Part shown: one piece after another, positions 1 through 21,004 of the stretch
How positions within the stretch are numbered: the stretch's first letter is position 1
Layout of the letters: the number at the start of each line of letters is the position of its first letter
Source of the DNA: a virus
Lineage: Duplodnaviria > Heunggongvirae > Uroviricota > Caudoviricetes
Reading direction: 5' to 3' (one strand)
Virus record (IMG/VR): IMGVR_UViG_2778261588_000001
DNA length: 25,754 nt
The notes under the pieces: model-generated
What the model was told of the DNA's origin: nothing
The model's database searches: none
The model's input: the letters and a program-made list of their open reading frames with translations, nothing else
Program-made: the position numbers and the translations under genes

Positions 1-1284
1 TTACAGACTTCTGGAAGGTTGCGCAGCTCTTACAACACGCGGTTGATCTTCCGCAGCGTCTTCCAGCGCACTTAAATCACGGTCTTTCACTTCTGGCATT
101 TTCAGCGCAGAGATTAAACCAATCACTGAATATGCCATGATCATAATGGCGATCGGATACCAGGATTCCGTCATGGTGCAGAAAATACCCGCCAGGATAG
201 GACCAAAACCGGAAGCGATAAGACCACCAATTTCTTTAGAAATGGCCATCCGGGTAAAGCGGTTTTTACAGCCGAACATTTCTGCCATGGTAATGTTTTC
301 CAGAGCAAATAATCCCAGCACCGCACAGTTATGAATCACAATCAGTGCAACCATAATGGTGCTCGGGGCATAGCTTTTATCTACAATGATAGAAAGCATT
401 GGCCATGCCAGCACAATCGCGGAGGTATTCATAATAATATACGGGATCCGGCGACCAATTTTATCGGATAACCAACCAAGGAACGGAATGGTCATAAAGC
501 CGAGAATCGAACTAATCATCAATGCATCTGTTGGAATTGCTTTGTTAAACAATAACGTCTGCACTAAATAGCCTGCAAGGAAAGTCTGAATTAACCCGGA
601 GTTACCCGCCTGACCAAAACGCAGCCCTGTTGCCAGCCAGAAGGATTTGCTCTGGAACATGCTACCAGCAGGTGCAGGTTTTGCTGTGGGTTGGTTGCTG
701 TCATTAACCTTCTCAAAGACCGGGCTTTCTTTCAGATTCATACGTAACCAGATAGCAAAGACCATCACGACAACGCTCGCCAGGAACGGTATACGCCATC
801 CCCACGCCAGCAGTTCCTCTTTACTGAGAATGAAGAACATAAAGGCCCAGATTGCCGTTGCGCTCAAGGTTCCGCAGTTAGTTCCCATAGCTACAAATGA
901 GGAGATAATTCCGCGCTTACCTTTTGGTGCATATTCCGCCAGCATCGTACCGGCACCGGAAATTTCCGCACCTGCACCCAACCCCTGAATAATACGCAGC
1001 GTCACCAGCAAGATGGGGGCAAAAACACCAATCTGTGCATAGGTCGGTAACACACCAATTAAGGTGGTACAGATCCCCATCATGGTGATGGTAATAAAGA
1101 GCACTTTTTTACGCCCTATTCTGTCGCCCATTTTGCCGAAAATAAATGCTCCGACAATACGCGCCACATAACCTGCACCGTAGGTTCCCATTGCCAAAAT
1201 TAACGCCATTGCCGTTGATGATTCAGGAAAAAATATTTCATGAAACACCAACGCTGCGCCGAGCGAATATAACTGGAAATCCAT
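1..1284 (-). CDS. ydfJ: MFS transporter, YdfJ-like (427 aa), possibly lacking its ancestral N-terminus
   Basis: Complete ORF with the MFS loop motif GKMGDRIGRKK; recalled as the E. coli YdfJ sequence. Only about 19 residues precede the first loop and an in-frame stop lies 6 codons upstream of the ATG. Confidence 0.8.
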   Translation of the reverse strand: MDFQLYSLGAALVFHEIFFPESSTAMALILAMGTYGAGYVARIVGAFIFGKMGDRIGRKKVLFITITMMGICTTLIGVLPTYAQIGVFAPILLVTLRIIQGLGAGAEISGAGTMLAEYAPKGKRGIISSFVAMGTNCGTLSATAIWAFMFFILSKEELLAWGWRIPFLASVVVMVFAIWLRMNLKESPVFEKVNDSNQPTAKPAPAGSMFQSKSFWLATGLRFGQAGNSGLIQTFLAGYLVQTLLFNKAIPTDALMISSILGFMTIPFLGWLSDKIGRRIPYIIMNTSAIVLAWPMLSIIVDKSYAPSTIMVALIVIHNCAVLGLFALENITMAEMFGCKNRFTRMAISKEIGGLIASGFGPILAGIFCTMTESWYPIAIMIMAYSVIGLISALKMPEVKDRDLSALEDAAEDQPRVVRAAQPSRSL

Positions 1285-1523
1285 AATTCACAGATGTTTT
1301 TTCTCATTCTGTGGTTTCCTTGGCGCTTTCTAGGTTTTTTCAGATAGTTACATTTTTTCAAAAGCATCCTGAGTTCGATCTTACTATCTATCTGTGGCCT
1401 ATTTCTGTCCCATATATGCCCCAAAAAACACCCCAACAGATAAGCAATCTTTTCATGGTGTTACGCGTAAAAACAATAACGGCTTGAAATTATTCAATAC
1501 ACTCTCGAAAGTGCATCAGCCAA

Positions 1524-1557
1524 CCGCAGAACGTTATTGCATACAACGTTTCTGCGG
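1524..1557. repeat. Imperfect inverted repeat CCGCAGAACGTT-N9-AACGTTTCTGCGG upstream of the ydfJ-like gene
   Basis: Read directly from the sequence; 12/13 bp arms with a 9-nt spacer, no T-run after it. Confidence 0.4.
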
Positions 1558-2000
1558 CATATCACGAAACGATTACTTAATGACTGGGACTTCAGACCAC
1601 TCAATATCCGGTACAATTATGTATCAACGCAGTTTAACAACACCCTATATTTAATCCAGAGTGCGAGCAACGTTGTCCCTTTCTCTTTTGCACTCTTAAA
1701 ATATACGATTACTTAAGTGAAGATGCTTGACGAATCGCCAAATAAAACATCTTCATCAGCATAAAAATCCATATATGATTGAAAATTTAGTCATTAATAC
1801 CATTCATATCTGAATACTAACCTAATACGCTTACTAACCGTGAGAAATCTTTTTTTTCGACTTAATCACTCGAAATAAACTTTCACTCAATTGAAAACAA
1901 TTAGCTACAATTATCATTGCAATATCAAATCAAACATAACAACTTGCATAAATTCTCATGGGATACAGCATCAGTTGTGCCAAACACATAAGGAATTGAA

Positions 2001-2198
2001 ATGGACGGAGAAAGCTTTAACTTTGATGACAATGATATTGAATTTATTGCTTCAATGTATGCATCATGTAAATTATCAGGAAGTATCGCCCCCATAATGC
2101 ATATAATGGTTAGCATTCCAAAAAATAAGAAAAAACAATTCTACGAACGAGTTGAGCATTATTGTAGTTTATATTCCAATAAAAACCCACCTTCTTAA
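2001..2198 (+). CDS. Hypothetical small protein (65 aa) in the AT-rich terminal region
   Basis: ORF preceded by AAGGA 6 nt upstream of the ATG; AT-rich codon usage; no recognised homology. Confidence 0.35.
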   Translation: MDGESFNFDDNDIEFIASMYASCKLSGSIAPIMHIMVSIPKNKKKQFYERVEHYCSLYSNKNPPS

Positions 2199-2329
2199 AT
2201 TCGCTGCATTCTAGTGGATTCCATTAAGAAAACAATGACATACACTCAAACACATCTTTTTTATCAACAGTGAATTTCAGTTCGGCCAGTTTTTACCAGC
2301 TATTATAAAAATAGCACCCATATAAAGTT

Positions 2330-2428
2330 TTTACCCCACAGGTACAGCTGGCCATTCGATAACCGCACTAAGGAAGTGCCAACACGACATCAGCAAGACC
2401 CGATATTTCTTCCATGCCGCCAGCAACG
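2330..2428 (-). pseudogene. Tail fibre assembly gene 3' remnant
   Basis: Minus-strand translation ...[13 protein letters not shown]...IEWPAVPVG* parallels the C-terminus of the intact tfa at 3019..3600 (...[16 protein letters not shown]...IEWPVAPIG*); nucleotide similarity visible; no upstream ORF. Confidence 0.6.
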
Positions 2429-2902
2429 ATGTTAAGGTTAAATTAATTATAAAAAAATATATTATAATTCCATCTTCGCATTAAATTTTAACCTTTAATC
2501 TCCACACGGAACAAGTTGCATAGGTGACTATATTAAGAAAACTTATAACCACCAAAAAGATTTGCTTTGCAAGCAAAAACAGTGACCATTGACTCTAAGA
2601 AAATTCCGATCTATTGTTAGTGTCATCAAAGTTACTTAACAGTATTCCGAAATGAAAATACAAAGCAAGCTAATTGTCTTATTAAACATTATCATTGCAT
2701 TTATATTATTTGAGCTTTTAGCTCAAAAATTTGGTTTGAGTACATTATTTTAAAGCAAGATAAACAATATCGGGCACTCTAGTTTTTATAATTAACAATT
2801 AAACGCCCATAAAATGTTATTTACTTTTCTTCGCTATTGTCATATCTTAATAGAGTGGCTTACGCCACTCTACTTTCATCATATTTTGTACGTTTATGTA
2901 CT

Positions 2903-2932
2903 CGCCATGAAGCTCTTTCATGGCGATTTTTT
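2903..2932 (+). terminator. Rho-independent terminator-like hairpin on the plus strand with no upstream gene
   Basis: Perfect 9-bp stem CGCCATGAA / TTCATGGCG, 5-nt loop, then A-TTTTTT. A second perfect hairpin TAGAGTGGC-ttac-GCCACTCTA lies at 2851..2872. Confidence 0.5.
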
Positions 2933-3018
2933 ATTCTTAATCCAAGAACATACTCCCTACCTATAGAAAAATCACTTTTTGAACAAAAGAATAACGTATT
3001 TAGGTAATCATTACGAAT

Positions 3019-3600
3019 TTACCCTATAGGTGCTACTGGCCATTCAATATCCGGTGCAGTTGTTGTATTAACACGGTTCAGCAACACCCGATACTTCTTC
3101 CAGGCTTCCAGCAACGAGATTTCTTCCTCCGTTGCAATTTCCAGATCTGCAGCATCCTGAAGCGGCGCAATATGCTCACTGGCTACCTGCATCAGGTTGT
3201 TTTTTGTTTCTTCCGCCTCCCGGATCCGGAACAGTTTTTCTGCTTCCGTATCCTTCACCCAGGCTGTGCCGTTCCACTTCTGATATTCCCCTTCCGGCGA
3301 TAACCAGGTGACATTTTCCGGTAACGAGCCAAGTTCAGAAATAAATAACGCGTCGCCGGAAGCCACGTCATAGACGGTTTTTCCCCGATGATCTTCAACG
3401 AGATGCCACGATGCCTCATCACTGTTGAAAACAGCCACAAAGCCAGCCGGAATATCTGGCGGTGCAATATCGGTACTGTTTGCTGGCAGACCTGTATGAG
3501 GCGGAATATATGCGTCACCTTCACCAATAAATTCATTAGTTCCGGCCAGCAGATTATAAATTTTTATGGTCCGTGGTTGTTCACTCATTCTGAATGCCAT
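3019..3600 (-). CDS. tfa: Tail fibre assembly protein (Tfa family, 193 aa)
   Basis: N-terminus [51 protein letters not shown] is characteristic of lambdoid Tfa proteins; start overlaps the stop of the upstream stf remnant (TAATG). Confidence 0.85.
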
Positions 3601-3746
3601 TATGCAAGCCTCACAATATAGTTAAATGCGATGTTTTTGACGGTGTTTTCCGCGTTACCAGCAGCGTTAACGGTGATGGTGTGTCCATGTGAACCAATCG
3701 CAACGGAGTGCGTATGAGCACCAATAATCGCGGTTACTCTGTTCAT
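3600..3746 (-). pseudogene. Side tail fibre gene, last 48 codons only
   Basis: Minus-strand translation [48 protein letters not shown] matches the conserved Stf C-terminus. Its first codon overlaps the endolysin stop (ATGA) and its stop overlaps the tfa start. Confidence 0.65.
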
Positions 3747-4060
3747 TGCTGACCCCACAAACAGATTTCACGCTCAATCTCACGACGAGTCATGAGACCT
3801 TTCCATTGCTTACCGCCAGCATATGTCCAGCGACGTAGCTGATCACATGCGCCTTTGATATCGCCCTGGTTTATTTTGCGAAGAAGCGTCGATGTTCTGA
3901 AATTGCCAGCACCCACGTTGTAAACGAATGAGTAAAGAGCGCCGCGCATTGTTTCCGGTATATCGACTTTGATGTACGGGTTAATTTGTCTGGCGACCGT
4001 GGCAAGGTCTTTATTCAGGAGGGCTTTGCATTCTGCTTTGGTATACGTTTTACCGAGCAT
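3743..4060 (-). pseudogene. Endolysin (P22/RrrD-type lysozyme), C-terminal two-thirds only
   Basis: The 105-aa [40 protein letters not shown]... corresponds to roughly residues 61-165 of RrrD-type SAR endolysins as I recall them. Codons for TGKDI precede the ATG in frame, then a stop. The N-terminal SAR segment and catalytic region are absent. Confidence 0.65.
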
Positions 4061-4229
4061 GATGTCTTTTCCTGTACGTCAGCAGGCCAAATACCAGGCT
4101 ACCCAGCACACCTATTGCTGCCCACTGTGAGGGCGTGACTTTATCGAGCAGCTGTAAAAACCAGTAGCCAGCACTGCCTGCGGAGGTGCCGTAGGCAATG
4201 CCTGTTGAAATTTTGTCCATGGATTTCAT
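4050..4229 (-). CDS. Pinholin (phage 21 S-like) with replaced C-terminal tail, 59 aa
   Basis: [26 protein letters not shown]...[17 protein letters not shown] matches the S21/EssD pinholin family as recalled, then diverges into RKRHHAR* read out of frame from lysozyme DNA. Strong SD GGAGGTGA 5 nt upstream of the ATG at 4229. Confidence 0.6.
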
Positions 4230-4330: not shown

Positions 4331-4355
4331 TATAAAAAGCTCGCCATAGCGAGCT
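4331..4355 (-). terminator. Rho-independent terminator downstream of the lipoprotein pair
   Basis: Minus strand: perfect 7-bp stem AGCTCGC / GCGAGCT with a 4-nt loop, followed by TTTTTAT. Confidence 0.5.
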
Positions 4356-4480: not shown

Positions 4481-4876
4481 CTAACCTCGCATGTCAAAGC
4501 CAGATTTCTGAAAATCTCTGTAGACTTCCGGATTGTTGAAGGCCGGAAATTTGGCTTTATGAGCTGCGGACTTTATCGCTTCGCAATAGGCTTTATCACC
4601 GTTACTGGTAGATATTTTTAACGCCGTGCCATCCTGAGAGAATTCCATATGCAACCTGCATTTTTTCCCTTTCCAGTTATGCGGCTCATCAAGTTTGGCA
4701 TTAATTGCAGCTCTGATTCCCCGCGCTTGCGCCCCCCATTCATCCTGATCATCCCAGCGTCCTGAACTGCAACTACCTGTAGCAGTAGTTTTGTGGCAAT
4801 CTGAAGGGTGTAAAGGTGTGCATCCCGCAACAAAACCGACCCAAAAAGTCAACATAACGATTTTCTTTAATCCCAC
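4481..4876 (-). CDS. Lipoprotein with divergent TolA domain III-like C-terminal domain (131 aa)
   Basis: GTG start with SD GAGGAG at 6-nt spacing; signal peptide with lipobox VAGC; C-terminus ...KGKKCRLHMEFSQDGTALKISTSNGDKAYCEAIKSAAHKAKFPAFNNPEVYRDFQKSGFDMRG is paralogous to the adjacent 142-aa lipoprotein and resembles the TolA C-terminus. Confidence 0.7.
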   Translation of the reverse strand: MGLKKIVMLTFWVGFVAGCTPLHPSDCHKTTATGSCSSGRWDDQDEWGAQARGIRAAINAKLDEPHNWKGKKCRLHMEFSQDGTALKISTSNGDKAYCEAIKSAAHKAKFPAFNNPEVYRDFQKSGFDMRG

Positions 4877-5026: not shown

Positions 5027-5455
5027 TCAGGGTTTAAAATCCAGCACCCCATTTTGAAATACTTTATATACTTCCGGCGAAGGGGGGGCAGGTATATCAG
5101 CATTCTTTATCGCATTCATCGCTTCACGACATAAATCGAGGTCTCCACTTTCTCTTTTAACCTCCAGTAGAAGGCCATTCGGGGCCATATGCATTCTCAG
5201 TGTACACTCTTTTCCTGAATACTTACTCGCATCCCCGAACTGTTTTTCGATGGCGCTCTTGATTTGATGGGCATACAGACGGATATTCTCACTAACATCA
5301 GAAGTACGTTCAGATGAACTCACATACTGTGTCTCTATTGCTTTATCGGAGTAATATGATGTACGGTCATGATAATTTGTCGATACAGCATCAGTGCACC
5401 CGATAATAATCCCACTAATAATCAACGTAAGAATTGATGCGCTACGAAAACCCAT
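5027..5455 (-). CDS. Lipoprotein with TolA domain III-like C-terminal domain (142 aa)
   Basis: ATG with SD GAGGA; signal peptide with lipobox IIGC; C-terminal 85 residues YAHQIKSAIEKQFGDASKYSGKECTLRMHMAPNGLLLEVKRESGDLDLCREAMNAIKNADIPAPPSPEVYKVFQNGVLDFKP resemble the E. coli TolA C-terminus as recalled (...YAGQIKSAIESKFYDASSYAGKTCTLRIKLAPDGMLLDIKPEGGDPALCQAALAAAKLAKIPKPPSQAVYEVFKNAPLDFKP). Confidence 0.75.
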   Translation of the reverse strand: MGFRSASILTLIISGIIIGCTDAVSTNYHDRTSYYSDKAIETQYVSSSERTSDVSENIRLYAHQIKSAIEKQFGDASKYSGKECTLRMHMAPNGLLLEVKRESGDLDLCREAMNAIKNADIPAPPSPEVYKVFQNGVLDFKP

Positions 5456-5572
5456 TTTTCCTCACATATGTCATATAGTAAAGGATTATATATACCGTTG
5501 TTTTGGACGCTCAAACAGCGAATCAGATCAAATAAAACGCACATTTGTTAACATTTACACAAAGTCTGCGTG

Positions 5573-5593
5573 GGATATTCTGAAAGAATATCC
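5573..5593. promoter_or_regulatory. Perfect 21-bp palindrome GGATATTCT-gaa-AGAATATCC about 120 bp upstream of the 142-aa lipoprotein gene; candidate operator
   Basis: Read directly from the sequence: 9-bp perfect inverted arms with a 3-bp spacer in an AT-rich promoter-like region. Confidence 0.4.
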
Positions 5594-5988
5594 ATAATGT
5601 GGAGAGAATCTATTGAAGTGCATGGTGCCGGGTGCCTCCCGGTGAATTCAGTACCAGCACCTGAATCCGCGATTATCCCATATACCTACTCGCTGATTGC
5701 CCCTCCGCACAGGGGGATTCACCATGCCAGTTTCTTTTAACAAACTCCCCGCAAACCAGAGAACAGTCAACCGCCTGAATTGTGAAGTATTTAAAAATTT
5801 CTCCCGCTAACTGATACCCGGCTAACAGTCTGGCGTTTTCTTTTTCAGCAACGGGAAAGCAACAACCACCACACCCGCCACCAGCACACCGTCAGCCAGC
5901 ACTGACATTATCCGGCTGCTGCAATGCCATTCACAAAAACAGTAAGCAATCACTTTTTACCGTAACAGGTGATAATCCAGATATGTAT

Positions 5989-6342
5989 CTACCCCAGATG
6001 AGTAATCCGAAGTTCATCCATACCACAGGTCCTGGCTATTCTGTTGTACTCCTGAACAAGAGCAAATAATTCTGAATTAGCAACCATGAACTCATCGCAA
6101 ACCCTCTGTATAGCATCACTATTCAGAAGAATAACGTCTCTTCCCGAAAGACGATCAGGAGTACAGAACAAAACTGTCAAACGGCTGAAGGCCTTTGCTC
6201 GTGCTGCATTGACTATATCAATACGCTGCCTAAGGATGAAACACCCCGACGCCTCATCAATATTCACTCTACCCACACCATATGAATGATAAATATTTAA
6301 TGCTGAAAAAACCATTAGACCGTATAACAAACACTCAATCAA
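5989..6342 (-). CDS. Hypothetical protein (108-117 aa) between the tRNAs and the lipoprotein pair; start uncertain
   Basis: ORF only. The first codon is TTG at 6342; an ATG at 6315 gives 108 aa; no convincing SD at either; no homology recognised. Confidence 0.4.
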   Translation of the reverse strand: MIECLLYGLMVFSALNIYHSYGVGRVNIDEASGCFILRQRIDIVNAARAKAFSRLTVLFCTPDRLSGRDVILLNSDAIQRVCDEFMVANSELFALVQEYNRIARTCGMDELRITHLG

Positions 6343-6452: not shown

Positions 6453-6529
6453 TGGCGCGCTGTACTGGATTCGAACCAGTAACCGATTGCTTAGAAGGCA
6501 ATTGCTCTGTCCGGCTGAGCTAACAACGC
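6453..6529 (-). tRNA. tRNA-Arg (anticodon UCU), phage argN/argO-like
   Basis: 77-nt cloverleaf on the minus strand: acceptor GCGTTGT/ACAGCGC, T-arm ACTGG-TTCGAAT-CCAGT, anticodon loop CU-UCU-AA, encoded 3' CCA. Confidence 0.85.
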
Positions 6530-6634: not shown

Positions 6635-6710
6635 TGGTGGCCCTTGCTGGATTTGAACCAGCGACCTGGCGATTATGAGTCGCTCGCTCTCACCACTGAG
6701 CTAAAGGGCC
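6635..6710 (-). tRNA. tRNA with CAU anticodon, ileX/ileZ-like (tRNA-Ile2; elongator Met not excluded)
   Basis: 76-nt cloverleaf: acceptor GGCCCTT/AAGGGCC, T-arm GCTGG-TTCAAAT-CCAGC, anticodon loop CU-CAU-AA, discriminator A, encoded CCA; differs at only a few positions from E. coli ileX as recalled. Confidence 0.85.
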
Positions 6711-6853: not shown

Positions 6854-7675
6854 TTACCTAGTTACCTTTTTTAACTGCCGCTCAGCCCATCCTTCTTCAA
6901 TATCAAACCGGGTCACCAGCGCATCATAGAATTTCTTAACTGTTTTTTCCCATGACGCGCGTGTTATCTGGTTTGTCACCTCGCATATAGCATTAAATGC
7001 CTCCGTTGATGGTAGTCTTTCATAGCCACGACCACCACAACGCTGGCAGTCTCTGATAACAGGCATACCACGTTTTACCGACTCTTCACGGTGAATGGCG
7101 ACACCACGCCCACGGCAATCCTTACAGGCGGTGGAAACCTCACCCTTTCCGCCACACTCCGGACAGGCAACTTTTACCACCTCCCTGACTTTTTTCCATT
7201 CTTCCCAGTAAGACGGATACACACCTTTCGTACACTTTGCCCATACCGGCGGCTTACCATCCGGATACTGGACCTTGTTTGTAAAAACTACGCTTTCAAT
7301 AAATTTTTCCCCATAGCAACAAGGGCACTGCTTTTTACTCGCTGCGCTGCGGGCATAATCCTCAAAAGCGTACGAAGCCATAATGCGCATCACTACCGGT
7401 TTTATTTCTGCCGGAAGTTTTCTCAACGCCGCCACACGATCGCACCGACTGAGTGCATAATCTGCCAGTAATTCTGTTGCCCGCGCCCTGTCATTCATAC
7501 TGATGCCCATTTTCCCCAGGAACGCAGAAAACCCCATCTCAGCCCGATTCTGTGTCATGCCCTGCGCGGCCATCACATCAGTGATACTCAGCGCATCTTT
7601 TGACGTTGAGGCCGATGCATCGGTCAGGCAAGGGGATTTTGGGGAGTAGTATTTCGGTAAATCTTCCAGTTTCAT
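6854..7675 (-). CDS. quuQ: Late-gene antiterminator Q, QuuQ-like, with DnaJ-type zinc-finger repeats (273 aa)
   Basis: Three CxxCxGxG motifs (CPECGGKGE, CKDCRGRGV, CQRCGGRGY); overall similarity to Qin QuuQ as recalled; position immediately upstream of the phage tRNAs. Confidence 0.75.
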   Translation of the reverse strand: MKLEDLPKYYSPKSPCLTDASASTSKDALSITDVMAAQGMTQNRAEMGFSAFLGKMGISMNDRARATELLADYALSRCDRVAALRKLPAEIKPVVMRIMASYAFEDYARSAASKKQCPCCYGEKFIESVVFTNKVQYPDGKPPVWAKCTKGVYPSYWEEWKKVREVVKVACPECGGKGEVSTACKDCRGRGVAIHREESVKRGMPVIRDCQRCGGRGYERLPSTEAFNAICEVTNQITRASWEKTVKKFYDALVTRFDIEEGWAERQLKKVTR

Positions 7676-9555: not shown

Positions 9556-9711
9556 TTACTCCTCAGGTTCGTAAACTGTGAAGACAGCGACCTCCGTCTG
9601 GCCGGTTCGGATTCGTACCTCGCAGAGGTCTTTCCTCGTTACCAGTGCCGTCACTATGACGGTTAAACAGATGACGATCAGGGCGATTAACATCGCCTTT
9701 TGCTGCTTCAT
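9556..9711 (-). CDS. hokD: Hok-family type I toxin (51 aa), HokD/RelF-like
   Basis: MKQQKAMLIALIVICLTVIVTALVTRKDLCEVRIRTGQTEVAVFTVYEPEE is near-identical to E. coli HokD as recalled. An in-frame 19-codon upstream extension exists but the internal ATG gives the canonical length. Confidence 0.85.
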   Translation of the reverse strand: MKQQKAMLIALIVICLTVIVTALVTRKDLCEVRIRTGQTEVAVFTVYEPEE

Positions 9712-10431
9712 AGCCTGCTTCTCCTTGCCTTTCGGCACGTAAGAGGCTAACCTAGATTTGCCGTTCATAGATTGAGCCTCAGATTAATGTTAAGCGTCTT
9801 GCAGGACGCGTAATGTTAACTGGGGCTTTTCTCTATCTGCCTTTGGTGTTCATGCCTGAGGCAGATAGCCTCAAGCACCCGCAGCAATTCTACTTAACTC
9901 CCGTCACCTCGCCAATATAAAATCAATCAGAAAGGCGATCCATAAGAACAACAGCAAGACAATAAATTGCCATTACAGCCGCAATAGCTAGCGCACATTT
10001 GAGAACCAGCACGACAACCTCCTGTATTGGACGTACACCAGTTCTGATAAATATGAGGCTGTCTCATCATTGATTCAATATAACTATTGGGTATAGTTTC
10101 TGTGATTTTGTTCTGTAGAAATGGAACACAACAACCAGTCACCACCAGCACTTCTTTAAATACGCCAAGTCCGACGCAAGCTAACCTTCTAGTCCGCTTT
10201 GAGCGAGGAGCGGACCAAACCCGGCCAACTGACTCTTAAAGGGGCCGCAGGAATTTTTCGTCTGAACTTTCGAAGCTCCTCTCCCTGAAGACAGAAAACT
10301 TCTGTGTGCTGTGGGAATATTGAATCTTTGCATTAGATATAAATAATTTTATCCCGCCTGAAGTTTACATTATTTTATTTATCTGTTTTTCTAAATCAGA
10401 CTGCACTCCTTACTTAAATCAGGAGCCAGTC

Positions 10432-11631
10432 ATGCCATTTGTTATTTATGTGTTTACTATCAGTGCCTTTGCGCTCGGACTCGCGGAATTTGTCCCCATT
10501 GGGCTGACAGACGTTATGGCTCAGGGGTTGTGTGTGGGTGTGGAGCAGACCGGGGCAGCGGTTACAACCTATGCACTGGGGGCAACGTTCGCGGCACCCG
10601 TACTGTCTGCGCTGACAGCAAGCTGGAGCCGGAAAAATGTAATGCTTACAACTGCCGTTGTGTTTACTGCCGGTAGTCTGGCGGCCGCGTTTGCAGCCAC
10701 ATTACCTCAGCTCCTGTTAGCGCGGTTCATTGCTGGTCTGGGACACGGCCTGTTTCTGGCTGCGGCATCCAGTACCGCAGCTCGTCTTGCTGGACCGGGT
10801 AAAGCAGGCAGAGCGGTGGCTGTGGTATTTGGTGGCTTTACTCTGGCGATGGCAATCGGCGTACCGCTGAGTACATGGTTGGGGGGGGTGGTCTCATGGC
10901 GTCCAGTTCTCGGCGCTATTGCCGCTTTTGGCGCGTTCGGATTCCTTGGACTGTTGTTCGGTATGAAAGATCCCGTACGCAGCGTGCCCGGTGAACATAG
11001 TGACTCAGCAATGCAGAATATCGGCATGCTGTTTAACCGTAAGTTGCTGGCCGGCGCGCTGGTTACGGTGCTGGCGTATGCAGGCTCGTTTACGGCTTAC
11101 ACCTTTATCGCACCTATTCTGACGCAGGTGACAGGGGTTACCGGAGCAACGGTGAGTCTGTTTATGCTGGTTTACGGTATTACAGCTGCGGTAGGTAATA
11201 TTCTTGGTGGGAAACTTACCGACAGCATGGGGGTTAATCGTGCCAATATACTCATCATTAGCGGCATTGTTGTTGTCGTGCTTGGTATGTGGCTGCTGTC
11301 ATCCTCACCGGTGAGCATGGGCATTCTGGTTGCGCTGCTGGGTATGGTGACATTTGCCGCAGTGCCGGCACTGCAGGCCCGTCTGATTGGTGTCGCTGAG
11401 CAACATGCTCCTCATGCGCATGGTGTTGCTGCCGGCCTGAATATTGCGGGCTTCAACTCAGGTATAGCGCTGGGATCAGTACTGGGCAGCATTACTATAA
11501 GCCACGCCGGTATCGTGTATACCGGTATCAGCGGTGCGATTGTTTCTCTGCTCGGCCTGCTGTTGCTGCTTGCACAAATCCGTCGCAGCCACAGTCGTAA
11601 ATTTCAACAGGTTAAAATCGTAGGCCAGTAA
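10432..11631 (+). CDS. MFS transporter (399 aa, 12-TM type), cargo
   Basis: Long hydrophobic ORF with Gly/Ala-rich helices; SD AGGAG upstream; visibly higher GC than flanking phage DNA. Confidence 0.85.
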   Translation: MPFVIYVFTISAFALGLAEFVPIGLTDVMAQGLCVGVEQTGAAVTTYALGATFAAPVLSALTASWSRKNVMLTTAVVFTAGSLAAAFAATLPQLLLARFIAGLGHGLFLAAASSTAARLAGPGKAGRAVAVVFGGFTLAMAIGVPLSTWLGGVVSWRPVLGAIAAFGAFGFLGLLFGMKDPVRSVPGEHSDSAMQNIGMLFNRKLLAGALVTVLAYAGSFTAYTFIAPILTQVTGVTGATVSLFMLVYGITAAVGNILGGKLTDSMGVNRANILIISGIVVVVLGMWLLSSSPVSMGILVALLGMVTFAAVPALQARLIGVAEQHAPHAHGVAAGLNIAGFNSGIALGSVLGSITISHAGIVYTGISGAIVSLLGLLLLLAQIRRSHSRKFQQVKIVGQ

Positions 11632-11642
11632 AGGGAGGTTAT

Positions 11643-12335
11643 ATGCTTACCCGTGAAAATATGCTTAATGGCACATTTGTCAGGGTGCATGAAGCGCTGC
11701 TCCCGGCGAATATGCTCTGGGACGCTGAAAAAATACGCGCATCAATGAACTCTACTCTGGAGGAGCGCCCGACGGGTGCTCCTTTCTGGATATTTGCCTA
11801 CGGGTCATTGATGTGGAATCCCGTGCTGGCAATTGAAGAAATGCAACGGGCCCGTCTGAAAGGATGGCAGCGCAGTTTCTGCATTCGTTTGATATCCGGA
11901 CGAGCGACTCCTGATGTCCCCGGCAGGATGTTATCGCTCGACGAAGGTGGAATTACCGAAGGTATTGCGTTCAGACTGCCGGAATCGACTCTTATTAATG
12001 AGCTGGAAATTGTCTGGACGCGCGAGATGATAACCGGTCTTTACCGTCCGGTCTGGGCAGACGTTTCGCTAGGAAACGGTGAGGAAATTCAGGCGCTGGC
12101 TTTCGTATCAGACAGACTGCATCCGCATTATGAACAGGACAATCTTACAGCGACCGTAGCGTTGAGCATCGCATCTGCCCGTGGAGACATTGGCACGAAT
12201 GCAGATTATGTATGGAAACTGCAGGCCACTCTGGGTGCGTTGGGAATACGGGATGATTACGTGAGTGAACTGGCCCTTGCTCTGCATGAGGCTCCCTGTA
12301 ACGATAAACTTCATCAGCGAGGCGCTTCACTATGA
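11643..12335 (+). CDS. ChaC-family gamma-glutamylcyclotransferase-like protein (230 aa)
   Basis: Motif FWIFAYGSLMWNP and downstream GRMLSLDEGG...LWTREMITG pattern typical of ChaC; SD AAGGGAGG upstream. Confidence 0.8.
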   Translation: MLTRENMLNGTFVRVHEALLPANMLWDAEKIRASMNSTLEERPTGAPFWIFAYGSLMWNPVLAIEEMQRARLKGWQRSFCIRLISGRATPDVPGRMLSLDEGGITEGIAFRLPESTLINELEIVWTREMITGLYRPVWADVSLGNGEEIQALAFVSDRLHPHYEQDNLTATVALSIASARGDIGTNADYVWKLQATLGALGIRDDYVSELALALHEAPCNDKLHQRGASL

Positions 12336-13213
12336 GCCATCTGAGCCATCTGCGAACGTTTCTTGAGGCCTATCGCTCTGGCTCCTTTTCAAAGGCGGCA
12401 GAACTACTGGGCATCACTCAGCCCGCGGCGTCACAGCATATCCAGTCTCTTGAGACTCTGGTTGGTAAGCGTCTGTTTATCAGGCAGGCCAGAGGCGTGA
12501 CGGCAACCGAAGCTGCGGATGAGCTTGCCCGCTCAGTTTCACCCTTCATTGATGGTCTGGAAGAAAAGCTGTCCTCTTTCCGGTCAGGCTCTGTACACGG
12601 GGGAACAATTAATCTGGCAGGACCGCCAGATTTTATTCATTCCCGGCTTGGGACAGTAATGGCTCCACTAATGAAGGAGGGGTATCGCCTACGCTTTCAT
12701 ACCGGCAATAAGCAACGTATTTATTCCCTTTTGCATGACGGGAGCGCCGATCTCGCTGTTACCGCATCTATGCCTGATGACCGTCTGTACGGCTATGCAC
12801 ATCTACTGACTGAACGCATGCTCCTTGTTCATGCTCCCGCCATGTCAGAGATCATCGGATCAGAACCTGGTGCTGAAACGCTTGCCTCATTACCGCTGAT
12901 TGCTTATGACGAAGAGTTGCCACTGATTAGAGCGCTCTGGGCCTCCATGTTTCAGAGAGCCCCTGAGATGCAGGCTACATTCACCATTCCGGATTTACGT
13001 ATTATCCGCGACTTGGTCTGTGACGGCCACGGGTGGACAGTGCTGCCGGATTATCACTGTGACAATGACCTGAAAAGTGGTCGCCTGATTTCAGTGACAC
13101 CTGCAGACCTCGCTCCGACTAATCATCTTTATCTGGTCTGGAACAAAAGGACGGCTAATAACAGCCGAACCGCCTATGTTCGGGATTACATTCTTAAAAC
13201 GTTTCCGCGTTGA
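12332..13213 (+). CDS. LysR-family transcriptional regulator (293 aa)
   Basis: N-terminal HTH LRTFLEAYRSGSFSKAAELLGITQPAASQHIQSLE; start overlaps the ChaC-like stop. Confidence 0.85.
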   Translation: MSHLSHLRTFLEAYRSGSFSKAAELLGITQPAASQHIQSLETLVGKRLFIRQARGVTATEAADELARSVSPFIDGLEEKLSSFRSGSVHGGTINLAGPPDFIHSRLGTVMAPLMKEGYRLRFHTGNKQRIYSLLHDGSADLAVTASMPDDRLYGYAHLLTERMLLVHAPAMSEIIGSEPGAETLASLPLIAYDEELPLIRALWASMFQRAPEMQATFTIPDLRIIRDLVCDGHGWTVLPDYHCDNDLKSGRLISVTPADLAPTNHLYLVWNKRTANNSRTAYVRDYILKTFPR

Positions 13214-13257
13214 TGTTTGAAACGGATGATTGGCGATGCGTATCATAAGTTACGTAT

Positions 13258-13281
13258 GTCCGCTTCTGGCACAAAGCAGAC
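13258..13281. repeat. Hairpin repeat copy A: GTCCGCTT-ctggcaca-AAGCAGAC
   Basis: Read directly; shares a 16-nt core (15/16 identical) with copy B at 16931..16954; lies between the convergent LysR and membrane-protein genes. Confidence 0.45.
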
Positions 13282-13343
13282 GCCCACTCTCACGCGAATG
13301 CTTTGCCCTTGACTTGCCAACAACCGTATCGCTTGCTCCGCAA

Positions 13344-14636
13344 CTATGGTTTTTTATTAGAACCTTCGCCACTAAATAAATTATAATAAATTGATTTTAT
13401 TAGATATCTGTCAGAATCTATATGGTCAGCACGAGTAGCATGCTCTAATGTTTCAAATGCTAGGGTTTGTGCGGCTTCAGCAAAAATTCCAGGCCAACCC
13501 TTACTCAGCATCGACAGTCCTTTAAGTACCCTTATCTGAATTTCCCTCATACTGGCACCATCGCGCGCAACAGGTGAGAAAAAGTCTTCAAGTAGATCGT
13601 TATTCTGAAGTGGTGCAACATGTACAGAAGGATATTTCACTTCTATTTCATCAGATTTATTCTGCGCGTAAGCGGAAAGTATACGTACACCTCTGCCAAT
13701 GACATCAATGGCGGTTCCAGGATCGTTCACTGCGGGGGAAAGGGCTCGGCAGGCTATTTCGGCCATGACGCTAAGACAAAATCGGGGGTCCTGAGCAAAT
13801 GAACGTACATCCGAGACAATAATCGTCTCAAGTAAATCGGTGCTGATTGATGACTCCTGGCCCTGACTCAGGTACAAAACTGGCGTGGACGGATGTATGA
13901 AACTGCCCGGCTGCGCCACGAGGTATACATGACGGGGATCATTGGTCAGCAGCTTGCTGAGTTTCACCATATCAACATATTCAACATAGCCAATCTTTTT
14001 CGGATAAACTGCAACCGTTCCTTTCGGCTGTTCATTGTTCTCAAGCCAAGGATATCCGCCGAGACAGGGATTTCTTGCTCTCGCAATAAATGTTTCGATG
14101 GCCGCCTGTTCTACTTTTGCCGTTGTCTCACCAACCCTCCCCAGAGAGGTCAAATGCTGTATCCAGCGAAGCAATGTGATGAGGATTAAGGCAATGACAA
14201 CCAGTGTTACAATGAATAAAATGACTCTCCCCCTTTCTCCATAAGCTCCCATATTGAGGGCAATAATCCCTACCAGACTGAAGAGAAAAGAACCGATGAA
14301 GGTGGCCAGTACATTTTGTGTGGTGACGTCTTCAACAACTAAACGAGTAGCTCTGGGAGTCACATTAGTAGTGGCTGAACCGTAGGCTGTGACCATGATG
14401 CTCAGCGAAAATGTGGTCACTGCCAGCATACTCGATGCCAGTATGTTCAGAATGTTATCGACTGCTTCCGCACCAACCTTCACGGAAACCGACTCAGGTA
14501 TCATTGATTTAAAAAGAATTGATAAAAGGGCCGTTATTATTGCGACAATTGCGAATAACGTTGCCCTGAACCATAGTTTTTTAAATGTCTGCTTCAGCAT
14601 CCATTTCCAGCGTGAAATCATTCTGCATTCCCTCAT
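13344..14636 (-). CDS. Predicted membrane protein (430 aa), DUF2254-like
   Basis: N-terminal transmembrane segments followed by a soluble C-terminal domain; family assignment from memory and uncertain. Confidence 0.65.
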   Translation of the reverse strand: MRECRMISRWKWMLKQTFKKLWFRATLFAIVAIITALLSILFKSMIPESVSVKVGAEAVDNILNILASSMLAVTTFSLSIMVTAYGSATTNVTPRATRLVVEDVTTQNVLATFIGSFLFSLVGIIALNMGAYGERGRVILFIVTLVVIALILITLLRWIQHLTSLGRVGETTAKVEQAAIETFIARARNPCLGGYPWLENNEQPKGTVAVYPKKIGYVEYVDMVKLSKLLTNDPRHVYLVAQPGSFIHPSTPVLYLSQGQESSISTDLLETIIVSDVRSFAQDPRFCLSVMAEIACRALSPAVNDPGTAIDVIGRGVRILSAYAQNKSDEIEVKYPSVHVAPLQNNDLLEDFFSPVARDGASMREIQIRVLKGLSMLSKGWPGIFAEAAQTLAFETLEHATRADHIDSDRYLIKSIYYNLFSGEGSNKKP

Positions 14637-14684
14637 ATTGCAGCCGGGATAAATAAATGCCGCCTCTGTGGCGGCATGTTGCTG

Positions 14685-16688
14685 TTAACGAACCAGATGC
14701 AGGAAGTGCAGGTGTTTTTCGTACTGGTCCAGTATGTCATTAATCAGCTGTTCCTGATTCCAGCCCATTACATCATAATTTTGGCCGCCCTCTTTGAGAT
14801 AGACTTCAGCGCGATAATATCGATGTTGTTCACTCTGCTGCTCATCATTATCCAGCGCAGCGAGCGCGAAGGTCGGTGAGTTATACCCGCGAAGCCTCAC
14901 TTCATATATATAATTCAGCTCGTTGCCCAAATCGACTTCAAGGCGAATACGATCCTCGGCGGCGTCACTGATGTGGCTTATCGTTCCCTGCTTGTTAAGT
15001 TCCTCCTGAACCAGCGTCATGGCGGGTTGGATAATGTCGTCCATAAAACGTTTCACAAGAGAGCGCTTCGGCAAATACGCGATATTGCGTAACCTTCTCT
15101 GCCAGGGAATTGGGTTACGTGCAGCCGTAGGAGCAATAGTCGCCATGCTAAGGCTTTCACGCTTGGTCAAATCCCGACGCAGGGCTTTTAACAGTCCGTA
15201 TATGGATATTAATAAGATAACTGAGAAGGGCAATGCACTCGCTATCGTTACGGTTTGCAACGCACTCAGCCCCCCTGCGATCAGCAGGGCAATAGCAACA
15301 ACGCCCATGAGCGATGCCCAGAAAATTCGCTGCCAGACGGGCGTGTTTGCCACCCCACCTGATGCCAGAGTATCCACAACCATTGCCCCCGAATCAGCAG
15401 ACGTTACAAAGAAGACGATGACCATCGCCATTGCAATGAATGACAGCACGGAAGAGAACGGGAAATGCTCCAGGAAATTAAACAGGGCAAGCGCAACATC
15501 CTGCTGAACGGTATTGGCGAGGTCAGTGGCGCCCTGGTTCATGATGAGATAGATGGCGCTGTTTCCAAACACCGTCATCCACATGAGCGTAAAGCCGGCG
15601 GGAACAAACAACACGCCAGTCACGAACTCACGAATTGTCCTGCCGCGGGAAACGCGTGCAATGAACATACCTACAAACGGCGACCATGAAAGCCACCATC
15701 CCCAGTATAATAATGTCCAGCCCCCCAGCCAGTTGCTCGACTTGGGTTCATACGCGTAAAGGTTGAACGTTTTACTCACCAGTTCCGACAGATAACCACC
15801 CGTATTTTCCACAAATGACTTCAGCAGAAGCACAGTGGGACCCAGGCACAAGACCAGCGCCAGGAGCAACACCGCCAGGCCCAGATTAAGCTCAGACAGG
15901 ATGCGTATTCCCTTGTCCAGGCCGGACACCACCGAAATCGTCGCTAACCCCGTGATGACCACGATCAAAATGACCTGTACCGTTTCATTGATGGGCACGC
16001 CGAAAAGATGGTTCAAACCGGCATTCACCTGCAATACACCGTAACCCAGTGATGTTGCAACGCCAAAGACAGTGCCTATCACGGCGAAGATATCAACCGC
16101 GTGGCCTATAGGCCCGTAAATGCGATCGCCGATAATGGGATAGAGCGCAGAACGCAGCGTTAAAGGCAGACCGTGACGGTAACTGAAAAAGGCCAGAATC
16201 AGCGCCACGATGGCATAAATTGCCCATGCGTGCAGACCCCAGTGGAAGAACGTCAGGCGCATGGCTTCCTTCGCTGCCGCAACGGTCTCTGGAGTGCCGA
16301 CAGGTGGCGAAAGATAATGCATCACAGGTTCGGCAACGCCAAAGAACATCAGGCCGATCCCCATCCCTGCCGAAAAAAGCATCGCGAACCAGGAGTGGTA
16401 GCTGAAATCAGGCTGCGCATGGTCTGGGCCCAGCTTTATATCACCGTAACGTGAGAGTCCAAGGAACGTGACGCTCAGTAAAATCAGGGCCACAGCAAGT
16501 ATGTAGAACCAGCTGGCATTCGTGAAGATTTGTTGCTGAAGTAGTTTAAAATTTTTGTCGGCGACATCCGGGAATACGGCGGCAAAGGCGACAAGAAGGA
16601 AAATTAGCAAAGCAGATGTAAAGAATACCGCTTTGTTAATCTGGCTTGTAGACTTCTTTGGGGTTGTATCATTTTCACTCATAATCAT
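14685..16688 (-). CDS. BCCT-family transporter, BetT-like (667 aa)
   Basis: Length and N-terminal pattern (...GDIKLGPDHAQPDFSYHSWFAMLFSAGMGIGLMFFGVAEPVMHY) parallel E. coli BetT as recalled; long C-terminal cytoplasmic tail. Confidence 0.85.
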   Translation of the reverse strand: MIMSENDTTPKKSTSQINKAVFFTSALLIFLLVAFAAVFPDVADKNFKLLQQQIFTNASWFYILAVALILLSVTFLGLSRYGDIKLGPDHAQPDFSYHSWFAMLFSAGMGIGLMFFGVAEPVMHYLSPPVGTPETVAAAKEAMRLTFFHWGLHAWAIYAIVALILAFFSYRHGLPLTLRSALYPIIGDRIYGPIGHAVDIFAVIGTVFGVATSLGYGVLQVNAGLNHLFGVPINETVQVILIVVITGLATISVVSGLDKGIRILSELNLGLAVLLLALVLCLGPTVLLLKSFVENTGGYLSELVSKTFNLYAYEPKSSNWLGGWTLLYWGWWLSWSPFVGMFIARVSRGRTIREFVTGVLFVPAGFTLMWMTVFGNSAIYLIMNQGATDLANTVQQDVALALFNFLEHFPFSSVLSFIAMAMVIVFFVTSADSGAMVVDTLASGGVANTPVWQRIFWASLMGVVAIALLIAGGLSALQTVTIASALPFSVILLISIYGLLKALRRDLTKRESLSMATIAPTAARNPIPWQRRLRNIAYLPKRSLVKRFMDDIIQPAMTLVQEELNKQGTISHISDAAEDRIRLEVDLGNELNYIYEVRLRGYNSPTFALAALDNDEQQSEQHRYYRAEVYLKEGGQNYDVMGWNQEQLINDILDQYEKHLHFLHLVR

Positions 16689-20946: not shown

Positions 20947-21004
20947 TTTCTGGTGACGTTTGGCGGTATCAGTTTTACTCCGTGACTGCTCTGCCGCCCT
21001 TTTT
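20947..21004 (+). ncRNA. dicF: DicF small RNA (antisense inhibitor of ftsZ and other targets)
   Basis: TTTCTGGTGACGTTTGGCGGTATCAGTTTTACTCCGTGACTGCTCTGCCGCCCTTTTT matches the DicF sequence as recalled, including its 3' terminator; lies just upstream of dicB. Confidence 0.7.

Follow-up and report, generated by a model that had tools for sequence, protein, structure and literature searches.

A phage 21-type lysis cassette very probably decayed by two microhomology deletions in a Qin-like cryptic prophage

The window analysed here, the whole 25,754-nt stretch of IMG/VR record IMGVR_UViG_2778261588_000001, contains a Qin-like cryptic lambdoid prophage inserted in ydfJ. The element carries genes for an integrase, an excisionase and an exonuclease together with dicB/DicF, ydfD, a YdaS/YdaT-like pair, hokD/sok and RusA. 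The ydfJ insertion, dicB/DicF, ydfD, hokD/sok and the lack of virion genes, taken from the annotation of the corresponding prophage of Escherichia coli O169:H41 F6326-C1, Rfam and the ORF list, place it with the Qin-like prophages. Neither the ORF list of the window nor the F6326-C1 annotation contains a terminase, head/capsid or tail gene within the element. A block of non-phage genes lies in the middle of the prophage (10432-16688), between hokD and the replication/immunity region, and encodes an MFS transporter, a gamma-glutamylcyclotransferase, a LysR regulator, a DUF2254 protein and a BCCT transporter. With no virion genes and a host-type block in its midst, the element is already incapable of phage production. 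Rfam matches to sok (9706-9880, minus strand), beside hokD, and to DicF (20948-20999, plus strand), upstream of dicB, are both full length. Judged by sequence, it is the lysis cassette that has suffered, and the regulatory and toxin modules seem to have escaped damage.

The late region begins with a Q-type antiterminator gene (6854..7675, minus strand; Pfam PF03589, Antiterm) that is uninterrupted and has the same length as in F6326-C1. It is followed, in order, by a tR'-like hairpin (6773-6754), two tRNA genes, two genes encoding TolA C-terminal domains and the damaged lysis cassette. The tRNA genes occupy 6453-6529 and 6635-6710 (minus strand); one is tRNA-Arg(TCT), and the other, which has a CAT anticodon, is called Met by ARAGORN and tRNA-Ile by RefSeq in F6326-C1. 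The two TolA-like genes (4481-4876 and 5027-5455, minus strand; 131 and 142 aa; Pfam PF06519) are paralogous, lie between the Q/tRNA region and the holin gene as late-operon morons and are intact in the window and in its relatives, with an Rfam match to the STnc100 sRNA just upstream of them (5566-5756, minus strand). Late-operon transcription of the cassette remnants would come from the Q region, and to enter the cassette it would need to read through a hairpin predicted by consensus scan only, a terminator-like structure with a T-run after it, located some 100 nt before the holin start (4338..4355, minus strand).

The cassette opens with a truncated S21/EssD-type pinholin gene (4050..4229, minus strand), recognised from the ORF list, its translation and Pfam PF04971. 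Its translation start is well preserved, with a strong Shine-Dalgarno sequence, GGAGGTGAGG (4241-4232, minus strand), and an MKSM dual start of the antiholin S71/holin S68 type (ATG AAA TCC ATG, 4229-4218, minus strand). The reading frame consists of native codons 1-52, which match EssD 1-52 of F6326-C1 and comprise the dual start M1/M4, TMD1, the loop and the initial 17 residues of TMD2, and then of seven frameshift codons, RKRHHAR, ending at a TAA at 4052-4050. Missing are residues 53-71 in S21-71 numbering, which comprise LTNLYF, the final six residues of TMD2, and the charged native tail at the C-terminus, KIKEDKRKAARGE, now replaced by RKRHHAR. An S21-type pinholin, which opens pinholes, depolarises the inner membrane and thereby frees the SAR endolysin, has two complete TMDs, a SAR-like TMD1 and a pore-forming TMD2, and its native tail; only TMD1 is complete here. 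The hydrophobic core of TMD2 is reduced from 23 residues (W36-F58) to 17 (W36-Y52) by the loss of L53-F58; its G40xxxS44xxxG48 portion is kept, and the tail that now follows is cationic by chance, with a net charge of +4. The class II holin profile PF04971 is accordingly matched over positions 1-48 of 64 (E=4.2e-25, 88 bits), compared with positions 1-63 of 64 for the intact 71-aa EssD of F6326-C1. A FuN-screen study found that S21-68 truncated from its C-terminus to K56 still formed pores and that the K/R anchor at that point was essential (bioRxiv 10.1101/2021.04.20.440580); the pinholin of the window, with its 17-residue TMD2 core, is six residues shorter than any S21-68 truncation in that study. 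Among approximately 15 billion proteins, the exact 59-aa product (WP_096956944.1) comes from one contig (NJUI01000006.1, GCA_002459785.1). Pieces of this contig, each two kilobases long, are exact matches to the window, which identifies it as the DNA from which the window was taken.

The second gene of the cassette is an endolysin remnant of 105 aa (3743..4060, minus strand) that corresponds to R21/RrrD residues 61-165, as identified from the ORF list, Pfam PF00959 and 3hde_A. The product agrees at every position with residues 61-165 of the phage 21 lysozyme whose crystal structure is known (PDB 3hde_A), and it matches the T4-type lysozyme profile PF00959 over positions 32-125 of 125 (E=1.4e-33), compared with positions 3-125 of 125 for the intact 165-aa RrrD of F6326-C1. 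The match to RrrD extends from the ORF at residue 61 back to residue 56, since codons T56-I60 (T-G-K-D-I) survive at 4075-4061 (minus strand); on their 5' side the endolysin frame holds a single Arg codon, preceded by a TGA at 4081-4079. The remnant's ATG, with AGGA before it, precedes the new holin stop by 10 nt. RrrD residues 1-55, including the Gly/Ala-rich, weakly hydrophobic SAR domain AVAAAIGGGAIAIASVLI, fall within the first of the two deletions described below, and the remnant has no N-terminal SAR domain of the kind found in R21/RrrD-type endolysins. The lysozyme class to which R21/RrrD belongs is defined by an E-X8-D-X5-T motif (PMC9239132). A literature search retrieved no paper that gives R21 E35, D44 and T50 explicitly, and the general motif was therefore applied to the sequence; read in this way, the deletion has taken all three of E35, D44 and T50 from RrrD, and the remnant is without the motif. 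What is left is predicted to be a non-catalytic C-terminal lobe only, which, having no export signal, should be able neither to reach peptidoglycan nor to cut it.

Comparison with intact relatives defines both lesions to the base. When the whole window was compared by megablast with 5,426 complete E. coli genomes, near-identical Qin-like cryptic prophages were recovered, the top genome matches being 99.9% identical and about 1.7 kb longer than the query. Relatives at ydfJ include the prophages of E. coli O169:H41 F6326-C1, F9792 and F8111-1SC3 (NZ_CP024263.1 and relatives), which share with the window an insertion site, a gene content and 99.9% identity, extending over the integrase, exonuclease, dicB/DicF, ydfD, hokD/sok, the transporter/LysR block, Q, the tRNAs, the TolA-like genes and tfaQ. 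F6326-C1 is the best of these matches, and its cassette is annotated as essD (71 aa), rrrD (165 aa), rzpD, iss, a tail-protein pseudogene and tfaQ. The O169:H41 copies keep intact essD, rrrD, rzpD and iss and a longer tail-fibre remnant, whereas the window has deletions of 226 and 1506 bp. Pairwise BLAST against the F6326-C1 locus (L002), from which the deletion ends were taken, resolves into three collinear blocks: window 1-3726 to locus 501-4226, window 3724-4076 to locus 5733-6085, and window 4074-25500 to locus 6309-27735. To the right of the cassette, 21.4 kb align at 99.96% identity, and the gaps measure exactly 226 and 1506 bp.

The smaller deletion, deletion A, removes 226 bp at a junction with 3 bp of microhomology (4074..4076, collinear alignment to F6326-C1) and joins holin codon Y52 to endolysin codons H55/T56. 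On the coding strand, with a slash marking the break point, the intact holin reads CTG CTG ACG TAC/CTG ACA AAC and the intact endolysin GGG CAT AC/A GGA AAA GAC ATC ATG, while the window reads CTG CTG ACG TAC AGG AAA AGA CAT CAT GCT CGG TAA. The shared TAC is the sole homology at this joint, and inspection of the end sequences at both deletions found none longer than the 3 bp at each junction. Because 226 is not a multiple of three, the holin reads on out of frame for seven codons. The original prediction had described a pinholin frame that follows the S21 family to GLLTY and then continues out of frame as RKRHHAR, an endolysin ORF that begins at an internal Met near residue 61 with TGKDI in frame behind a stop, and a deletion of roughly 200 bp that took the holin tail together with the endolysin SAR domain and catalytic N-terminus. 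This structural reading stands in every detail: translation places the last native holin residue at Y52, the ORF begins at M61 with TGKDI behind a stop, here a TGA at 4081-4079, and the alignment to intact essD/rrrD that had been proposed as a check, run here against F6326-C1, defines a single internal, out-of-frame deletion with the predicted losses from EssD and RrrD.

The larger lesion, deletion B, is not mentioned in the original prediction. It removes 1506 bp at a junction that also has 3 bp of microhomology (3724..3726, collinear alignment to F6326-C1) and takes out the bor/iss lipoprotein gene together with everything in rzpD/rzoD past codon 8 and about 430 bp of the pseudogene for the tail fibre. 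In place of a complete Rz with embedded Rz1, eight rzpD codons are left, compared with 153 aa for rzpD of F6326-C1. As 1506 is 3 x 502, the join is in frame and gives a chimeric 48-aa ORF (3600..3746, minus strand; from translation) made of RzpD 1-8 (MNRVTAII) and the last 40 residues of the tail-fibre remnant. NCBI annotates this ORF as a gene (L003, 6484-6630); a Pfam search with it returned no family match, and the chimera is most likely meaningless. Beyond it lies a tfaQ-type tail fibre assembly gene that looks intact (3019..3600, minus strand; Pfam PF02413, E=3e-42; tfaQ in F6326-C1) and is orphaned, with no complete tail fibre gene left in the element. A full-length Rfam IS009 match of 225 bits is found inside the tfaQ coding sequence (3059-3257, minus strand). 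Phage 21 lyses its host through three envelope-disruption steps, carried out by pinholin, SAR endolysin and spanin (bioRxiv 10.1101/2025.11.12.688109). With the genes for all three damaged within 2 kb, every one of these steps has been hit.

Beyond the two deletions, the window differs from its sister prophage at a small number of positions that are unevenly distributed. Four SNPs fall within 55 bp of the rrrD remnant (3911-3965), compared with nine differences in the next 21.4 kb, and one of the four gives the phage 21 allele M98 instead of T98. Copies in 17 other loci match the 347-bp rrrD remnant at 100% identity. The cluster at 3911-3965 suggests a gene-conversion or mosaic patch acquired from another lambdoid prophage. 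At the left edge, the ydfJ remnant (1-1284, minus strand) shows 17 differences from the O169:H41 relative over its 1284 positions (1.3%), against 0.04% in the prophage interior, so that the prophage and its flank have had different histories, through recombination or transfer between lineages. The BCCT-family transporter gene (14685-16688, minus strand) is an open 667-aa ORF in the window and a pseudogene with an internal stop in F6326-C1, a difference for which a C/T substitution at window position 16390 may account. The elements of the window and of F6326-C1 appear to be decaying at different genes.

We searched for the two junctions with 40-nt probes centred on each, which cannot seed a 28-mer on intact DNA. 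In the 5,426 complete E. coli genomes neither the junction A probe nor the junction B probe found a match. A 25-mer across junction A was absent from GTDB species representatives, JGI metagenomes and IMG/VR, while a control 25-mer of intact sequence matched at least 120 IMG/VR contigs. The deleted allele is private to one draft assembly, GCA_002459785.1. In phage records, 134 entries match the remnant, and all 12 of those listed align in two pieces with about 226 bp extra between them, as do the listed complete E. coli genomes. The alternative raised with the original prediction, that these truncated ends are the native form of a short holin/endolysin variant, is rejected, since the listed phage and genome copies carry the additional 226 bp or so and Pfam coverage of both products is truncated; the short forms look like lesions.

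The 105-aa endolysin product is less unusual than the junction that gives rise to it. An identical lysozyme product starting at Met61 has been called on 181 contigs, and a conserved short form was considered and rejected because elsewhere the ORF arises from different lesions with N-terminal debris upstream. Ten places with the identical ORF were inspected (L004-L013). An IS3-family insertion at about rrrD codon 50 generates it in L004, an IS21-family insertion at about codon 40 in L006 and 1-bp indels in L007, L008 and L013, and in L005, L010 and L011 everything upstream of rrrD nt 76 has been replaced. These loci thus share their product with the window but differ from it in their lesions, and most of them have kept an intact holin. 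The frequency of such damage was estimated from 108 IMG/VR loci whose S21-type holin is intact, a non-random sample drawn from the first 120 matches, in which 92 have the canonical intact 165-aa lysozyme, about nine have a different endolysin module, two have harmless variants and about five carry disabling lesions in an R21-type lysozyme. Many E. coli prophages carry broken R21-type endolysin genes; the breaks seen in L004-L013, L033, L084, L106, L108 and L126 are independent, several of them fall between codons 40 and 58, and the kinds of lesion include a nonsense codon at K58. Breakage of the R21-type endolysin is a regular but minority outcome, and its occurrence in only about 5% of the surveyed copies fits what is expected for unselected decay.

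Taken together, these observations very probably describe a decayed phage 21-type lysis cassette of a Qin-like cryptic prophage that has suffered two microhomology deletions. The ancestral cassette would have encoded the pinholin S21/EssD, the SAR endolysin R21/RrrD and the spanins Rz/Rz1, and two independent illegitimate-recombination events, each using 3 bp of microhomology, would have cut it down. Deletion A, being out of frame, would have exchanged the pinholin tail for RKRHHAR and cost the endolysin its start codon, SAR domain and catalytic triad; deletion B would have removed the spanins and bor/iss and joined the region of the endolysin stop to the tail-fibre remnant. We infer microhomology-mediated deletion from the short identities at both joints, and the events were most probably recent and neutral. 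Lysis would be abolished by these losses. The original prediction that lysis has been disarmed is sound on the same grounds, with both the triad and the SAR export signal gone, and the removal of the spanins now adds to it.

The most durable of the competing explanations, which we nonetheless consider unlikely, is that the remnants retain some function, the truncated pinholin depolarising the membrane as a lysis-less toxin or antiholin-like modulator with the 105-aa lobe made by translational coupling. This idea is compatible with the survival of the Shine-Dalgarno sequence, the dual start, TMD1 and the glycine-zipper stretch of TMD2, with the resemblance of RKRHHAR to the required K/R anchor, with the placement of the lobe's ATG 10 nt upstream of the holin stop with AGGA before it, and with the full-length, uninterrupted Q gene upstream. 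However, a TMD2 core shortened from 23 to 17 residues by the loss of L53-F58 lies below any truncation tested in the literature we found, the 59-aa holin allele occurs on one contig rather than being conserved, and the lysozyme lobe has neither an export signal nor catalytic residues.

A slightly less probable explanation is that the deletion is real but spread through selection, the loss of a lethal holin-endolysin pair having benefited the host. Lysis genes are toxic, inactivating lesions in R21-type endolysins recur independently and all three lysis functions have been struck inside 2 kb, and these points speak in its favour. The distribution of the allele argues against this explanation, as it is confined to a single assembly, with neither junction in any of the 5,426 complete genomes, and is not conserved across independent lineages, as a domesticated module would be expected to be. 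The closest listed sister copies of the same defective prophage keep essD-rrrD-rzpD intact, which indicates that the cassette is tolerated in the cryptic state and that residency does not require it to be disarmed; for the same reason, damage to a toxic gene does not on its own point to domestication. The roughly 5% of R21-type copies broken in the IMG/VR survey match unselected decay, and the documented host role of the DLP12 module needs intact genes (PMC7918800). Neutral decay fits these data at least as well as selection. The one part of the original prediction that does not hold up is its description of the lesion as a domestication signature, which is unsupported for a private allele in a prophage already without virion genes whose sister copies are intact.

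The deletions might instead reflect an assembly or sequencing artefact in which reads from several essD/rrrD prophage copies were mis-assembled, a possibility to which we assign a low probability. Evidence for the allele comes from one draft assembly (GCA_002459785.1), essD/rrrD is multi-copy, with a median of three places per genome, two rearrangements lie within 350 bp of each other, and the 347-bp segment between them combines a four-SNP cluster relative to the sister prophage with complete identity to 17 other loci. Against this, graph assemblers make false joins where repeats reach k-mer length, whereas these joins share 3 bp only; contig NJUI01000006.1 runs for 313 kb straight through the region; and both flanks are collinear with the F6326-C1 prophage. 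A microhomology of 3 bp is typical of genuine illegitimate recombination. Least credible is a lysis-less killing or phage-exclusion module assembled by chance from the 59-residue mini-pinholin and the translationally coupled, dead cytoplasmic lysozyme C-lobe, in which TMD1, the shortened TMD2 and the Arg/Lys/His anchor would depolarise the membrane whenever the late operon was read.

The two ORFs deposited under the names "class II holin family protein" and "lysozyme" are remnants of pseudogenes, and to count them as a working lysis system would be wrong. Lysis genes that have become pseudogenes inside a cryptic prophage are an ordinary and already well-understood kind of feature, and the present locus is a clean, base-exact case of microhomology-mediated decay in such an element, with little import beyond correct annotation. 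The only question with some interest for experiment is whether a pinholin can still form pores when its TMD2 has been cut to 17 residues and its cationic tail is fortuitous.

The closest known systems are the S21-R21-Rz/Rz1 cassette of phage 21 and, in E. coli K-12, essD-rrrD-rzpD of DLP12 and essQ-rrrQ-rzpQ of Qin, which have the same gene order as the window and near-identical sequence; the remnant DNA is likewise 96.8% identical to the intact cassettes of lambdoid phages such as Turner, ev207 and PhiR11_1. Unlike a phage 21-type cassette, that of the window lacks the holin C-terminus, endolysin residues 1-55 and the spanins past codon 8, and from its sequence it is predicted that it cannot be working. 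Two bacterial systems illustrate what retention of phage lysis genes by a host looks like. The SRRzRz1 module of DLP12 is an intact, regulated operon whose deletion alters vesiculation and which also contributes to cell-wall maintenance (PMC7918800), and SpmX of Caulobacter is a domesticated phage lysozyme (bioRxiv 10.1101/418723). Both resemble the window in being phage lysis genes resident in a bacterial chromosome. They differ in that each preserves either the whole module or a lysozyme domain that is complete though attenuated, is conserved across lineages and has a host phenotype, whereas in the window the catalytic half of the lysozyme is deleted and the allele is private.
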